From positions 288,001-352,000 of the forward strand of contig CAXXDV010000001.1 in NCBI GenBank assembly GCA_963674745.2: 64,000 bases of DNA, written 5' to 3'. Origin of the DNA: Desulfosudaceae bacterium (GTDB taxonomy: Bacteria > Desulfobacterota > Desulfobacteria > Desulfobacterales > Desulfosudaceae). The position numbers were made by a program, and so were the translations under genes. This document shows, one piece after another, positions 9,732-52,699 of this stretch. The notes under the pieces are model-generated. The model did not search any database. It saw only the letters and a list, made by a program, of their open reading frames with translations, and was not told where the DNA came from. The stretch's first letter is position 1; the number at the start of each line of letters is the position of its first letter.

Positions 9732-10604
9732 ATGAAACCTTACACGCTGAACTGGGGCGACCATTCCCTTGAACTGGGGAAACGTGCCCTGATAATGGGA
9801 ATATTGAACACCACGCCGGACTCATTTTCCGATGGCGGCAGATTTGAAACCTTCTCCGACGCCATAACCCATGCCCGGCAAATGATCGCCGACGGTGCCG
9901 ACCTGATTGATATCGGCGGAGAATCCACCCGCCCTTTTTCCGATCCGGTATCCGAAACAATGGAGATAAAACGAACCATACCCGTCATCAAACAACTTGT
10001 GCAGGAGACGGGTATCCCGCTGTCCATTGACACCAACAAAGCGGCTGTGGCCGAAGCCGCCCTGGCGGCAGGCGCGTCCATCATCAACGACATCAGCGCC
10101 CTGCGCAATGACCCGAAAATGGCATCACTGGCGGCCGAGACCGGCGTTCCCGTCATTCTCATGCATATGCAGGGGACACCCAAAACCATGCAACAGGAAC
10201 CGACGTATAAAAACGTTACGGCGGAAGTAATGGCCTTTTTAGAATCAGCCGCGGCCGAAGCAGAAGCGCAAGGCATATCTCCATCAAAAATTTTCATCGA
10301 CCCGGGCATTGGCTTCGGTAAAACAACCGACCATAACCTGACCCTGATAAAACATTTATCCCGCTTTCAATCCCTTGGCTTGCCCGTTGTGATCGGCACG
10401 TCAAGAAAAGCCTTCATCCGTAAAATCCTGGCCGGAAAATCAGCAGAACCGATTGCACCCCATATGCCGGTCGTGGAAACCGGTACCCAGGCCACGGTGG
10501 CCGCATCGATTCTGGCCGGCGCCCATATCATCCGTGTACATGACGTGGCCGGCGCAGTCGCCGTTGCTAAGATAACCGAAGCGATCAAAACCGCACCGGA
10601 TTAA
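9732..10604 (+). CDS. folP: Dihydropteroate synthase
   Basis: MGILNTTPDSFSDGG, DIGGESTRP, DPGIGFGK, SRK, RVHDV. Confidence 0.97.
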   Translation: MKPYTLNWGDHSLELGKRALIMGILNTTPDSFSDGGRFETFSDAITHARQMIADGADLIDIGGESTRPFSDPVSETMEIKRTIPVIKQLVQETGIPLSIDTNKAAVAEAALAAGASIINDISALRNDPKMASLAAETGVPVILMHMQGTPKTMQQEPTYKNVTAEVMAFLESAAAEAEAQGISPSKIFIDPGIGFGKTTDHNLTLIKHLSRFQSLGLPVVIGTSRKAFIRKILAGKSAEPIAPHMPVVETGTQATVAASILAGAHIIRVHDVAGAVAVAKITEAIKTAPD

Positions 10605-37952: not shown

Positions 37953-39002
37953 TTAATCGATCCGGATAGTTTCTTCAGCACCGTCTACGACTTCGCCCAC
38001 CAGGGCCGCGTCTTCGACACCGGCAGCTTTTAAGGCCCCTACCAGGTCCTCCCCCCCGGACCGGTCGACACTGATCAGCAGGCCGCCCGAAGTCTGGGGA
38101 TCGACCAGCACGTCCTGCAGTGAACGGGAGACAGTACCGGAAAAGATCAGCATGGCATCCCGGAACTCCCGGTTTTTGTGCGCACCGGCCGGAATCAGCC
38201 CCATGTCGGCATACGCCAGGGCTTCCTTGATCACCGGTACATCGGCCGCATAAACCCGGATGCCCATAGCCGAGCCCACGACCATTTCTGCCAGATGGCC
38301 CAAAAACCCGAAGCCGGTGATATCCGTACAGGCGCCGACATTAAACTGCGCCATCACTTCCGCCGCCGTCCGGTTGAGTTCGGCCATCTGCCGGCAAACC
38401 CGGTCAACCAGATCCGCCGGAGCCAGCTCCCCCTTGATGGCGGTATTGACGATACCCGTACCCAGCGCCTTGGTCAGCACCAGACGATCCCCGGCACGCA
38501 GCGCTTTCTTGGTCAGCACCCGGTCAGGATGCACAAACCCGGTAACCGACAGCCCGTATTTCAATTCTTCGTCTTCAACGCTGTGGCCGCCGATCAGCAC
38601 AACCCCGGCTTCGGCCATTTTATCGATGCCGCCCTGCAGGATCATGCGCAGCACGGACATATCCATCTTTTGAGCAGGGAATGCCACCAGGTTCATGGCG
38701 GTTTTGGGAACGCCGCCCATGGCGTAAACATCGCTCAAGGCATTGGCGGCCGCGATCTGTCCGAACCAGTAGGGGTCATCGACGATGGGTGTAAAAAAGT
38801 CCACCGTCTGGATCAGGGCCAGATCATCGGAAATTTTATACACGCCGGCGTCATCGGCACGCTCAAGCCCGACCATGACATTTTCATCAGACGGAAACGT
38901 CATACCGCACAAAGCCCTGTCCAGGTCCCCTGGCGCCAGCTTGGACGCTCACCCGGCCCCGGCCACAGTTGCGGTCAGACGGATATCTTTCGTTTTATCC
39001 AT
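37953..39002 (-). CDS. selD: Selenide, water dikinase, selenocysteine-containing (TGA at codon 18)
   Basis: MDKTKDIRLTATVAGAG-TGA(38951-38949)-ASKLAP, then DDAGVY, QTVDFFTPIVDDP, GGHS, DITGFG, DPQTSGGLL. Confidence 0.96.
38921..38933 (-). promoter_or_regulatory. SECIS-like hairpin of selD
   Basis: CCAGG-GGA-CCTGG beginning 15 nt after the in-frame UGA. Confidence 0.7.
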
Positions 39003-49413: not shown

Positions 49414-50103
49414 GTGACCCAAAAAACGCTCGGACTCAGAAGGAATCTGAAAGAACAGCAGCGTCGCGCCCAGATCAAAGAGGCGGCCATCAATCTCTTT
49501 TCTTCAAAAGGCTACCAGCAATCCACCATGGATGACCTGGCCGCGGAAGCCGGGGTCAGCAAATCGCTCATTTACTGGTACTGGGACAGCAAGGCCGCTT
49601 TATTGACGGAGCTGATCGACACCTGCATGAATCAATATATTGACCTGCTGACCGAGGCGGTTGAATCCGACGATCCGTTCATGGACAAATTCCACCGAAC
49701 CCTGTGGCAGTACCTTGACATGTCCCGAAAAAGCGACCGGCTCAACAAGCTGGTTCATTTCTGTTCTCTCCACAATACCTCAAAGAACAAGGATAATTTT
49801 GCCAAACGGGTTAATGATCATTACCGCCACGTCCTGGTTTTGATTGAGAAACTGATCGACCAGGCCGTTGAGGCCCGGTTTTTACCGCAAACGACAGACC
49901 GATCCGCAATTTCCCTGCTCCTGCTCTCCCTGACCGAAGGTCACATCTACATGTCAATCCTGGAAGAACGGCTTCCTCTGGAGCGTATTTTCACCGGCAT
50001 GTTTCTGCTGTTGATGGAAGGCCAGAACGTGTCTCAGGAACAGGCAACCACAAATAATATCGGCGATAATATTGAACAACCAGTACCGAAACAAAAAGAA
50101 TAA
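49414..50103 (+). CDS. TetR/AcrR-family regulator
   Basis: AAINLFSSKGY...TMDDLAAEAGVSKSLIYWYWDSK HTH. Confidence 0.94.
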   Translation: MTQKTLGLRRNLKEQQRRAQIKEAAINLFSSKGYQQSTMDDLAAEAGVSKSLIYWYWDSKAALLTELIDTCMNQYIDLLTEAVESDDPFMDKFHRTLWQYLDMSRKSDRLNKLVHFCSLHNTSKNKDNFAKRVNDHYRHVLVLIEKLIDQAVEARFLPQTTDRSAISLLLLSLTEGHIYMSILEERLPLERIFTGMFLLLMEGQNVSQEQATTNNIGDNIEQPVPKQKE

Positions 50104-50127: not shown

Positions 50128-50799
50128 ATGAGTGACCGGCAATTTCAGGCATTATCATCGTTCCGCGAGAAATTTCTGAGTTTTGACATTGACGCCATAA
50201 ATCAGGAAGCGGACAACATGCTGGCCGCAGGTGTCGGTGTCAGGCAGTTTCTTGACACCTGCACGCCGATCATGGCCGAGATCGGTGACAAATTCGAAAA
50301 AGGCGAATATTACCTTCCCCACCTGGTCATGGCCGGCGAAATGTTCAAAACCGCCAGCGCTAAAGTCAAAAGCGCCATGCAGGCCGAGGACAGCGGCAAT
50401 GCCATTGCCGATATTGTACTGGGAACCCCCAAAGGCGATATCCACGACCTGGGCAAGGATATTTTCGCGGTCCTGGCCGAAGCCAGCGGTTTTGCCGTTC
50501 ACAACCTGGGCGTCGACGTCCCGCCGGAAGCCTTTATCGCCCGGGTGGAAGAAACCGGCGCCGGCATTCTGGGCCTGTCTTCCTTGTTGACGACCACATT
50601 TGAAACAATCGAAGAGATTATTTCCCAGCTGGACAAGAAAGGACTGCGCAAACAGACACGTGTCATCCTCGGCGGCGGTGCCACCGAGCAAAGCCTGATC
50701 GAAAAACTGGGGGTTGATTTTCAGACCAGGGATGCCTACGAGGGCATTACCATTCTTAAAAACCTGACCGACGGAGAGACGAAAGGAGCCATGGCATGA
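50128..50799 (+). CDS. Corrinoid (B12-binding) methyl-carrier protein
   Basis: Cap IGDKFEKGEYYLPHL; GDIHDLGK (DxHxxG), NLGVDVP, GLSSL, GGG. Confidence 0.93.
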   Translation: MSDRQFQALSSFREKFLSFDIDAINQEADNMLAAGVGVRQFLDTCTPIMAEIGDKFEKGEYYLPHLVMAGEMFKTASAKVKSAMQAEDSGNAIADIVLGTPKGDIHDLGKDIFAVLAEASGFAVHNLGVDVPPEAFIARVEETGAGILGLSSLLTTTFETIEEIISQLDKKGLRKQTRVILGGGATEQSLIEKLGVDFQTRDAYEGITILKNLTDGETKGAMA

Positions 50800-51983
50800 A
50801 AACGCCGAAAATGATTTATGAAAAAGACACCATGACGGCCCAGCAGCGGCTTGACGCCGTGGTTCGCCTGGAAAAGCCGGATCGCGTTCCGCTTTCTTTA
50901 ATGCTGTATTATTTCGCACCCCTGCAGGTCGGGACCAAAATGAGTCAATATATGACCGATCAGGCGACGTATAAAAGCGTCATGAAACAAATCTGGGAGG
51001 ATATCGGCCCCTGGGACATTTACTACAACATCAACCCCTATTCCCGGATGATGTACAATTATGTCATGATGATGCGCGAACTCTGGCCCGGCATTGAGCT
51101 GGAAGAAGACGCCATGGCCAAGATCGATGAAATTCAATACATGGAACCCGAAGATTATGATGAGGCCGTCAAAACCTCTCCGCTGCTGGCGGACATGAGA
51201 TTCCGTCTGCGCATGCTCCCCCGCTTCTGCCAGGAGGCCCAGGGTAAAAGCATGCCGGTCCTGCTTGCCAAGATGGCCAAAGGCCTCATCGGACAGGCCC
51301 TGTTCTGGAGAAGCGATTTTAAATGGTGGCGTGACCAGGGGGCCGTCATCCAGATCGGTTACCAGGCGGAGATGCCGTTTGATACCTTTTCCCAGGCCCG
51401 TAATGTCATCAATTTTTCAGCCGACCTGTTCAAACGCCCTGAAAAAATCGGCCGGGCAGCCGAGCACTTGTCCCGCAATTTTGCGGACTCGGCTATCCTG
51501 GCCTGCAAACTGATGGGCGTGCCGATTGTCCAGTGTTACTGCCACCGCACCTCCAACAGTTTTATCTCTCCTAAGCAGTTTGAGGAACTGGCCTTTCCCA
51601 GCATGGAGATTATCGTTAACCGGATTGTCGATGCCGGGTTGACACCGATTCTGCATTGTGACGGTGACTGGTTGAAAAATCTCAAAACCCTGCGCCGTCT
51701 GCCCGCCAAAAAAATCATCATCCAGCTGGACGGGCTGACCGATATTTTCGCGGCCAAACAGGAAATCGGCGACCATATGTGTATATTCGGCGATGTACCG
51801 GCCGCCAAGCTGGTCACCGGAACGGTTGATGAGGTAGACGAATACTGTCATCGATTGATTGAAGAAGTCGGAAAAGGGGGCGGATTTATTCTGGCCGGTG
51901 GCTGAGAGATCCCGCCAAACGCGAAAGCGGAAACCGTCCGTGCGATGGTTCAGGCAGTACAAAAATATGGGTATTACAATTAA
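50796..51983 (+). CDS. URO-D/MtaA-family corrinoid methyltransferase, probable selenoprotein (TGA 51903-51905)
   Basis: KPDRVP, ISPKQFEE, ILHCDGD, GGFILAGG-TGA-EIPPNAKAETVRAMVQAVQKYGYYN-TAA; the TAA overlaps the next ATG. Confidence 0.85.
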
Positions 51984-52699
51984 TGAACAACCCCGAAATC
52001 AACCTATCACTACCCGATCATGCAAAGATCCTGTCCGGGACGATATTACGGCTGGGATATCCCGGCCCGGAGGCCGTTACCGGGAACATTTCCGTCCAGA
52101 TCGAGCAGGGAATCGAGACCTGCCTGGAACTGGCCCGGACAAAAGAAACACATCACACAACGGCTTTTACCGGTCTGGACAAAACCGCCATTCGTGGAGA
52201 CGGCCTTTGCCTGGAAACCGTCAACTGGACGCGGCTGGCCGCCCGCATGTCGGGTATCTGTGAGTTGTGCTGTTTCGCTGTCACCCTGGGCAAGGCGGTT
52301 GATGAACGCATCAAACAACAGGGTAAGACCGCCATGCTGCAAGCGCTGATGCTGGACTCAGCCGCTTCGGTTCTGGCCGACCTCTATGCCGACCAGGTTC
52401 AACAGCAGATCAATCACCATTACCGACAGCAGGGGCTGCAATCAAGCGTCCGTTTCAGCCCGGGATATTGTGACTGGCCCATGAAAGAGGGGCAGGCGAC
52501 ACTGGTCCCCTTTCTGGGCCCGGCATCCATCGGCATCAGCGCTTCGGACACGGGATTGATGACACCCCGCAAATCCATCACCGCCGTGGTTATTGCGGCC
52601 GAACAGATGCCGGCGGTAAGCCCCTGTTTTCTGTGTGTCCGGGAGTGTCCTCACCGGCGCGCACCCTACGAAGGCAAAAAAGACAATCCCAGAAAATAA
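51983..52699 (+). CDS. Standalone MetH activation-domain-like protein with C-terminal Cys cluster
   Basis: FAVTLG, LDSAAS, RFSPGYCDW, MTPRKSITA; CFLCVRECPHRR. Confidence 0.88.
   Translation: MNNPEINLSLPDHAKILSGTILRLGYPGPEAVTGNISVQIEQGIETCLELARTKETHHTTAFTGLDKTAIRGDGLCLETVNWTRLAARMSGICELCCFAVTLGKAVDERIKQQGKTAMLQALMLDSAASVLADLYADQVQQQINHHYRQQGLQSSVRFSPGYCDWPMKEGQATLVPFLGPASIGISASDTGLMTPRKSITAVVIAAEQMPAVSPCFLCVRECPHRRAPYEGKKDNPRK

Follow-up and report, generated by a model that had tools for sequence, protein, structure and literature searches.

A gene for a corrinoid-dependent methyltransferase of the UroD superfamily, found in a 64-kb stretch of the genome of a Desulfosudaceae bacterium (G000), contains one in-frame TGA that very probably encodes selenocysteine (Sec). 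This residue is predicted to take the place of a zinc-ligand cysteine of MtaA-type enzymes. The same column carries either TGA or a Cys codon in related genes, and the change appears to have arisen more than once. Below, the whole 64-kb stretch is called the window, and coordinates are window positions.

Methyltransferase gene with an in-frame TGA

The gene and its internal TGA codon are located as follows.

50796..51983, + strand: UroD-superfamily corrinoid methyltransferase, 395 aa, predicted Sec at residue 370 (Pfam URO-D, AlphaFold2, Foldseek)
51903..51905, + strand: UGA codon 370, predicted to be read as Sec (TGA/Cys alternation; alignment with the C-terminal zinc-ligand Cys of MtaA)

The frame begins with ATG at 50796, which overlaps the stop codon of the upstream gene (ATGA, 50796-50799). 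A single in-frame TGA (51903-51905) follows ...GGGFILAGG, as seen both in the DNA and in its translation with TGA set to U. Behind it stand 25 more in-frame codons, EIPPNAKAETVRAMVQAVQKYGYYN, and then TAA at 51981-51983, overlapping the ATG of the next gene (TAATG). Under translation table 11, the open reading frame (ORF) ends at 51905 and yields 369 aa, as against 395 aa for the read-through product. A preliminary description of this DNA had claimed a TGA after GGFILAGG with the frame running on to TAATG, and exactly this is visible in the sequence.

Sequencing error had been named there as a concern. Base calls of the window are matched by two Logan contigs, with no difference over positions 51400-52200; both contigs come from runs of one sample, which is possibly the source of the assembly itself. 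The same TGA is present in many independent assemblies, which rules out an assembly error. Because this TGA column recurs in nine other genomes of the family and in a second lineage, the observation is confirmed as real and far beyond chance. We predict with high confidence that 51903-51905 is a selenocysteine codon.

TGA and cysteine at the same column of homologs

A six-frame search covering 61 genomes detected the gene with exactly one in-frame TGA in G000 and nine other genomes (78-87% protein identity); none of the more distant homologs in this search has an internal stop. Of the 13 genomes in the taxonomic family to which the window belongs, 10 have the TGA form, and they represent five of the six genera. 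The three family genomes that lack the gene are 87, 94 and 79% complete. Two metagenome contigs carry the TGA form besides the ten family genomes.

Identity with the nearest Cys forms is 67-72%. When TGA-free homologs were translated, all nine displayed Cys at the TGA column together with a conserved tail. In an alignment of 45 sequences, U or C occupies the column in 39 rows, one row has a gap and five have another residue; these five are the most distant paralogs (29% identity or less). The column could be aligned at 77 of 78 loci in genome contigs, where it reads TGA nine times and Cys (TGC/TGT) 68 times with no other codon. Among metagenome contigs it was aligned at 64 of 74 loci, with four TGA, 59 Cys (TGC/TGT) and a lone Asn that belongs to a 29%-identical paralog. 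Both sets together give 13 TGA, 127 Cys and one Asn. The tail that follows, EIPPNAKAET[VI]RAMV..KYGYY, is conserved, and the Cys forms have a homologous tail.

Sampling was extended to 401 genomes of the phylum. Cys orthologs with 60-67% identity occur there in four other families (f131, f122, f87, f98), and no TGA form was detected in this sample outside G000. Any homolog at E<=1e-40 is present in just 31 of the 401 genomes.

Alternation of Cys and TGA at this column, conservation of the residues behind it and presence of the TGA in other genomes had been suggested as tests of the Sec hypothesis. Alternation was found in genome and metagenome loci alike, the tail is kept in Sec and Cys forms (it forms helix 378-391, see below), and the TGA recurs in nine more family genomes and in the second lineage.

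Selenocysteine machinery and genetic code

G000 possesses a complete set of the Sec genes looked for: selA (607.9 bits), selB (369.8), the gene for tRNA-Sec (75.1) and selD (368.6) all score over their curated cut-offs. The earlier argument that the genome uses Sec, drawn from the nearby selD and coupled to a check for selA, selB and selC, is thereby borne out. The selD gene lies in the window.

38061..38981, - strand: selD, selenophosphate synthetase, with one in-frame TGA (TIGR00476, 368.6 bits, over cut-off)

This selD appears to be itself a selenoprotein gene (AGAG-U-ASKLAPGDL). Its hairpin, CCAGG-GGA-CCUGG, lies 19-31 nt after the selD UGA and serves as a local control for the methyltransferase hairpin.

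Among the 39 long ORFs of the window, 12 end with TGA, which is also the true stop codon of six of ten orthologs of the methyltransferase themselves. A genetic code in which TGA is generally a sense codon is ruled out by these stops.

Possible RNA signals downstream of the UGA

Two hairpins can be drawn in the mRNA behind codon 370.

51920..51929, + strand: mini-hairpin CGC-GAAA-GCG, 18-27 nt from the U of UGA, possible part of a selenocysteine insertion sequence (SECIS)
51932..51950, + strand: 7-bp hairpin with loop CGUGC (CGGGC in some orthologs), 30-48 nt from the U of UGA

The criteria of Zhang and Gladyshev from 2005 reportedly ask for a stem-loop shortly 3' of the UGA with a G in the apical loop. 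The 7-bp hairpin is the best SECIS candidate. Its stem was compared across 11 distinct Sec sequences: 98.7% of cells are paired, and the changes consist of one double change from AU to GC, alternation between GU and AU, and one broken cell. The hairpin is missing from ten Cys orthologs folded in the same way. All three pairs of the mini-hairpin are unchanged in 11 distinct sequences, so that it offers no information on covariation.

Synonymous sites are constrained in this region. For codons 371-386 of nine Sec orthologs, pairwise synonymous difference is 0.207, the mean of the gene being 0.379; a value this low is reached in only six of 216 windows of the gene. The corresponding values in nine Cys orthologs are 0.500 and 0.517, and 51 of 141 windows reach so low a value. 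The mini-hairpin sits within this zone of frozen synonymous sites. The constraint is stronger RNA evidence than covariation.

Several observations on the RNA weigh against Sec insertion guided by the 7-bp hairpin. Covariation is thin, its observed score being reached by 52 of 500 shuffles with 10 sequences and by 84 of 500 with 12 sequences. The closing pair of the stem is broken in one sequence (L159). Folded as a single sequence, the 68 nt behind the TGA do no better than shuffled sequences (z -0.32). No Rfam family was matched at 51850-52050 with E<=10, apart from a 12.7-bit DicF match that is noise. The hairpin loop begins 34 nt after the UGA, versus about 21 nt in selD of the same window. 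Finally, the invariant mini-hairpin at 18-27 nt could be the real SelB site instead.

Recurrence of the predicted Cys-to-Sec switch

A second lineage with TGA at the same column comprises two Desulfomonilia metagenome-assembled genomes (MAGs; L092, L094) and metagenome contigs L168 and L172. Its proteins are about 66% identical to the window protein and have the conserved tail, and selB is present in both MAGs. A candidate hairpin occurs here at a different place (stem 18-21/27-30, loop CGUGU). None of the models in NCBIfam 20.0 scores over its cut-off for the lineage-2 Sec protein.

On a tree of 54 rows, the two Sec groups are parted by Cys forms behind starred branches, and the 15 DNA-verified Sec rows need two changes. 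The approximately unbiased (AU) test rejects a single Sec clade (difference in log likelihood 150, p 1e-122) for a group that was defined after the tree had been viewed, which lessens the weight of the test. Judging from this tree, the Desulfomonilia lineage appears to have made the switch from Cys to Sec independently.

The second lineage has its own operon (L092:1030-5457, L168:542-4970), consisting of genes for a TetR regulator, a corrinoid protein, the Sec methyltransferase, a 270-aa Fe-S protein and a 297-aa homocysteine S-methyltransferase domain. Such an arrangement suggests transfer of methyl from some donor to homocysteine. The 270-aa protein was considered as a homolog of the 238-aa protein encoded behind the window methyltransferase and rejected (E 0.079); it looks like an Fe-S protein of QueG/ferredoxin type.

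A third group on the tree consists of protein clusters P0081 and P0087 (60-63% identity), which end exactly with ...GFILGGG. This group is known from protein entries, one metagenome scan having returned no DNA for it, and is a candidate only.

Further TGA codons were encountered in other URO-D proteins. Of 150 URO-D matches listed for 121 genomes of the order, 23 have one internal TGA. Fourteen of the 23 were fetched, and 13 of them belong to a distinct, MtaA-sized URO-D subfamily of about 344 aa (L244, L245-L247, L249-L257) that is widespread in the order. TGA stands here at the same 'APG-C' column, ...G[YF]TFAPG-U-D[MIL]P[YF], and a FFICGDC motif is found where others have H-x-C. A clear hairpin, AUGUUCC-GGYG-GGAACAU, lies about 16 nt after the UGA. 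This subfamily, too, is matched by no NCBIfam 20.0 model over cut-off.

At the fourteenth locus (G461:C113:2983-3978) the TGA is an ordinary stop, and the locus was rejected as a Sec form. A few URO-D matches (G461:C113:5369-6364 and several places in G489) contain one internal TAG or TAA. These may reflect the same artefact as the fourteenth locus, a match overrunning a stop.

Protein fold and predicted metal site

The Pfam URO-D model matches the methyltransferase with E 1.1e-28 (100.7 bits, cut-off 23.9) over residues 191-391 only. MtaA/CmuA-type models of NCBIfam match below their cut-offs (TIGR01463 with 49.1 of 235.4 bits, NF040654 with 49.6 of 400), and no model of NCBIfam 20.0 scores over cut-off for this protein.

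An AlphaFold2 model built with 34 family sequences has a predicted local distance difference test score (pLDDT) of 95.2 and a predicted template modelling (TM) score of 0.93. Residue U370 is placed three residues after strand 364-367, and the tail forms helix 378-391 with pLDDT of about 96. A stop after 369 aa would therefore remove the last barrel helix, as had been claimed from the sequence before. Top Foldseek matches of the model are UROD and MtaA, with E of about 1e-11 to 1e-12 and TM on target of 0.66-0.75.

All 34 sequences, the most divergent of them 26% identical, keep H287, D289 and C/U370 without exception. When the family profile is aligned with MtaA (4ay7), LHlDgdW pairs with LHICGNV and LasGCeiPa with LAPGCGIAP. 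H287 falls on the His of the MtaA H-x-C, D289 on its Cys and U370 on the C-terminal Cys. The profile alignment supports the earlier placement of the TGA on the zinc-ligand Cys of MT2 (methyltransferase 2) enzymes. The proposal of a 395-aa selenoenzyme with 'LHCDG plus U' was upheld with one correction: the Sec reading stands, but the ligand register is that of His287 and Asp289, corresponding to MtaA H-x-C, and not Cys288.

The predicted metal site is His287-x-Asp289...Sec370, possibly with zinc bound and selenium as its ligand. Zinc binding is suggested by the alignment, and it counts against it that the nearest solved relative, CdmB, is zinc-free: its cavity holds neither zinc nor any other metal (Bernhardt et al. 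2026, PMC13222342; available part of the article). The methyltransferase family seems to have kept a metal-type site that was lost in CdmB, one ligand being Sec in some lineages.

UroD-superfamily S-methyltransferases have a zinc sphere of His-Cys-Cys, and in O-methyltransferases Asp or Glu replaces a Cys (Kountz and Balskus, PMC10418091; here and below, this refers to the available part of that article). By this rule, the set of His, Asp and predicted Sec leans towards an O-methyl substrate.

Gene neighbourhood and proposed function

The methyltransferase gene belongs to a module with three other genes.

49414..50103, + strand: TetR-family regulator, first gene of the module (Pfam TetR_N 7.8e-17)
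50128..50799, + strand: corrinoid (B12-binding) methyl-carrier protein (Pfam B12-binding_2 5.8e-11, B12-binding 9.8e-22)
51983..52699, + strand: 238-aa protein resembling the MetH activation domain, with C-terminal CxxCxxxCP (Met_synt_B12 8.6e-09)

The corrinoid protein also matches the NCBIfam model 'methyltransferase cognate corrinoid protein' (1.8e-37, below its cut-off), and its stop codon, TGA, is the one that overlaps the methyltransferase ATG. The 238-aa protein scores 35.7 bits with Pfam Met_synt_B12 (cut-off 25) and is the sole match above cut-off in G000. With the protein encoded 3' of the Cys-form gene of G027 it shares 34% identity (E 6e-32). Its RFSPGY fits RxxxGY, a MetH motif for binding of S-adenosylmethionine.

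The order TetR, corrinoid protein, methyltransferase and Met_synt_B12-like protein is kept in G002, G007 and G009, and the Cys form of G027 stands in the same order. A TetR gene 5' of the corrinoid protein gene is also present in G002, G007, G009, G027, G370 and lineage 2. At some loci (e.g. L076, L077, L239) neighbourhoods were covered in part.

The C-terminus of the 238-aa protein (52598-52699) reads CFLCVRECPHRR and contains CxxCxxxCP as in Fe-S proteins. The motif region recurs in the G027 homolog (C..C....C.HRR). The motif may be the protein's own electron-entry site.

Neither a second methyltransferase nor an ATP-dependent activator is encoded in the operon. Elsewhere in G000, a methyl-tetrahydrofolate:corrinoid methyltransferase (NF005719, 346 bits, cut-off 259) is found beside DUF1638 and a RACo activator. 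Candidates for a methyltransferase II (MTII) and for RACo thus exist in G000 away from the operon and could serve the module, a link that is conjecture.

We propose the following explanation, which in its entirety (Sec decoding, Sec at the zinc-ligand position, and a methyltransferase I (MTI) module) we consider probable. UGA 51903-51905 would be decoded as Sec by SelB and tRNA-Sec, aided by an mRNA hairpin just downstream, giving a full-length, 395-aa corrinoid-dependent methyltransferase with UroD-fold TIM barrel. Sec370 would take the place of the C-terminal zinc-ligand Cys of MtaA-type enzymes, in a metal site at the C-terminal ends of the barrel strands that faces the corrinoid partner. 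The enzyme would pair with the co-translated corrinoid protein and most likely act as a substrate-specific MTI, moving the methyl group of a small methylated compound to Co(I). An NF005719-type MTII and a RACo-type activator from elsewhere could pass the methyl on and keep cobalt reduced, respectively. The MetH-activation-like protein probably re-methylates the inactive Co(II) corrinoid protein, and the TetR protein would make the module inducible.

The MTI role and the direction of methyl flow are the parts that we infer. No MTII is encoded in the operon; the MTI role is thus drawn from the resemblance to CdmB and from genes elsewhere in G000, which is a point against it.

Two further loci of the genome touch on corrinoid and pterin metabolism. 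A second pair of URO-D (397 aa, 187 bits, no internal stop) and B12-binding genes (G000:C3:1733147-1735062; L238:4147-6062) adjoins a Cache/PAS sensor kinase and looks like another corrinoid methyltransferase module. A strong Pterin_bind match (290.5 bits) lies at 9795-10541 on the + strand, about 40 kb upstream of the Sec gene.

Alternative explanations

The most serious alternative concerns the function and not the decoding. The Sec enzyme might be an MT2-type methyl-corrinoid:thiol/selenol methyltransferase like MtaA, or bifunctional like MtsA, loading as well as unloading the corrinoid protein; this would explain why the operon has no second methyltransferase. We regard this as unlikely, yet deserving of attention. 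U370 and H287 align with zinc ligands of MtaA, the best NCBIfam matches (all below cut-off) are MtaA/CmuA-type models, and a single methyltransferase is encoded in the operon of the window and in its orthologs. Moreover, a soft selenium ligand would suit soft sulfur or selenium substrates, and MtaA homologs are tied to methyl-selenide metabolism (Kountz and Balskus, PMC10418091). On the other hand, the site is His-Asp-Sec and not His-Cys-Cys, and by the same article its carboxylate points to O-methyl substrates. Scores with MtaA models reach 49-69 bits against cut-offs of 235-400, the closest solved relative by sequence is an MTI, and the lineage-2 operon has a separate homocysteine S-methyltransferase domain as would-be unloading enzyme.

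It is improbable that the module is a non-canonical, MetH-like methionine synthase in pieces, made up of the corrinoid protein, the activation domain and a zinc enzyme of UroD/MetE fold, which would fill a gap in a family without MetH and MetE. Such a gap is suggested by absence of PF02574 and PF01717 matches from G000 (99.96% complete) and from all 13 family genomes. The only MetH activation domain of G000 above cut-off sits in this operon, the last gene of the lineage-2 operon encodes a stand-alone homocysteine S-methyltransferase domain, and the MetE and UroD folds are related (Foldseek matches to MetE; PMC539065, available part). However, three of the 13 family genomes (87, 94 and 79% complete) do without the gene, and a homolog is present in 31 of 401 phylum genomes; TetR control would be unusual for a housekeeping enzyme, and His-Asp-Sec is not a thiol-type set. 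MesB, a divergent core methionine synthase, is the only such enzyme of many Desulfo- genera according to the available part of Price et al. (2021), and a protein of MesB type may have slipped past the PF01717 search. As a separate observation, methionine synthesis in the 13 family genomes (G000-G012) is not explained by searches with PF02574 and PF01717, and a divergent MesB-type enzyme may exist there.

Full-length but selenium-free protein could also result if the TGA were read through without Sec, by near-cognate tRNA for Trp or Cys or owing to a local recoding signal. The weak covariation of the hairpin, and its greater distance from the UGA than in selD, would agree with this. Such read-through is nevertheless very improbable: alternation of TGA with Cys (13 TGA, 127 Cys, one Asn) is the signature of Sec, Sec machinery is present in every TGA-form genome tested (G000, and selB in both Desulfomonilia MAGs), and the same switch occurs in at least two independent lineages, each with a downstream hairpin.

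It is scarcely credible that codon 370 stems from a nonsense mutation or an error of assembly, or that it is the true stop of a 369-aa protein with 25 untranslated codons behind it: all database clusters listed for close orthologs are indeed annotated as 369-370 aa, but the same TGA stands in 10 genomes of five genera (78-87% protein identity) and in metagenome contigs, tail amino acids are conserved and homologous to Cys-form tails down to about 30% identity, truncation would take helix 378-391 from a confident TIM-barrel model, it is the long frame alone whose stop overlaps the next start (TAATG), and separate contigs agree with the window.

Novelty and significance

Among the 119 selenoprotein families and subfamilies in Table 1 of a 2026 review (PMC13188914) there is no family of UroD or MtaA fold, and the terms uroporphyrinogen, MtaA, MtbA and PF01208 are absent from that article. 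This agrees with the earlier impression that the protein is not one of the classical selenoprotein families. A literature search returned no report of a Sec-containing UroD or MtaA enzyme, families of Haft and Gwadz (2023) being covered via the table of the review. No entry of this kind occurs in the available text of a supplementary file of PMC8318568, outside of which its selenoprotein tables possibly lie. The Sec form would accordingly represent a selenoprotein type that is in no catalogue compared here, and a recurrent one.

All 14 of the closest protein clusters listed are 369-370 aa long, cut at the TGA and without the last barrel helix. Just two of the 14 bear names ('hypothetical protein' and 'uroporphyrinogen decarboxylase family protein'). 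Because such entries end at the TGA, the methyl-transfer capacity and the size of the selenoproteome of sulfate reducers are under-counted.

The great majority of selenoproteins known from prokaryotes are redox enzymes. With Sec in the zinc-ligand position, a corrinoid methyltransferase would extend the use of selenium to non-redox methyl-transfer chemistry. Whether Sec370 is indeed a selenolate ligand of catalytic zinc, in a substitution repeatedly favoured by selection among corrinoid methyltransferases of the UroD superfamily in anaerobes, we consider evenly balanced. Repeated selection is suggested by at least two independent switches within the family and a further one in the subfamily of about 344 aa. 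Since the same-column switch arose more than once, a real catalytic advantage can be argued for, and the natural Sec and Cys forms allow this advantage to be measured by comparison. To our knowledge, a Zn-Se enzyme site at Sec370 would be the first known, and the 2026 catalogue does not contradict this. If it is true, selenium here tunes a methyl-transfer centre and not a redox centre. The module is also a candidate demethylation route for some methylated compound in anoxic sediments.

Comparison with known systems

MtaA, the methylcobamide:coenzyme M methyltransferase of Methanosarcina mazei (4ay7/4ay8), shares with the window protein the UroD TIM barrel (TM on target 0.74-0.75) and the logic of a corrinoid-protein partner. 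Identity is only about 16%, and scores with the NCBIfam models for MtaA and CmuA remain at 49-69 bits, below cut-offs of 235-400. The ligands His-Cys-Cys of MtaA correspond to His-Asp-Sec in the window protein, so positions are kept and chemistry is changed; the ligand set of MtaA/CmuA is absent. Unlike MtaA, the window protein has about 190 extra N-terminal residues outside the Pfam match, and its host is a sulfate reducer and not a methanogen.

By sequence, the closest solved relative, ahead of MtaA, is CdmB, a chloromethane:corrinoid MTI of Acetobacterium (PDB 9rui; PMC13222342). It is matched with E 1.1e-25 by the single sequence and 1.2e-52 by the profile, most of the length being aligned. 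Both belong to the O-demethylase-related branch of the UroD superfamily and to an arrangement of MTI with corrinoid protein. In contrast to H-x-D of the window protein, the ligand columns of CdmB read S-F-Q, and CdmB has no Cys and no Sec. The CdmB operon has its own MTII (CdmA), whereas the window operon is without one.

Type 1 mlp clusters (PMC10418091) likewise combine UroD-superfamily methyltransferases with a corrinoid protein, in hosts that mostly have Sec machinery, and MtaA-like Mlp proteins are linked to methyl-selenium metabolism (Kountz and Balskus). The Mlps are reported with His-Cys-Cys and are not described as Sec-containing in the available part of that article; their clusters hold several Mlps and a Ram/RACE activase. 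The window operon has one methyltransferase with predicted His-Asp-Sec, no Ram/RACE gene, a TetR regulator and the MetH-activation-like protein.

Resemblance to MetH is seen in the corrinoid protein, which has cap and B12 domains (NCBIfam metH 8.5e-27), and in the 238-aa protein, which matches the activation domain; lineage 2 adds the homocysteine domain as a separate gene. Unlike in MetH, the window modules are on separate genes and no pterin-binding domain is encoded in the operon. The UroD-fold enzyme with predicted Sec stands where the methyl-donor module would be.

Sec at metal or organometallic centres is known from FdhA (Mo/W-Se), [NiFeSe] hydrogenase (Ni-Se) and the Sec form of HgcA (PMC13188914). 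As in these proteins, Sec of the window enzyme would replace a metal-contacting Cys in selenoprotein-rich anaerobes, and with HgcA, which acts in mercury methylation, it would share corrinoid methyl-transfer chemistry. What sets it apart from all three is that its metal would be the catalytic zinc of a non-redox methyltransferase.

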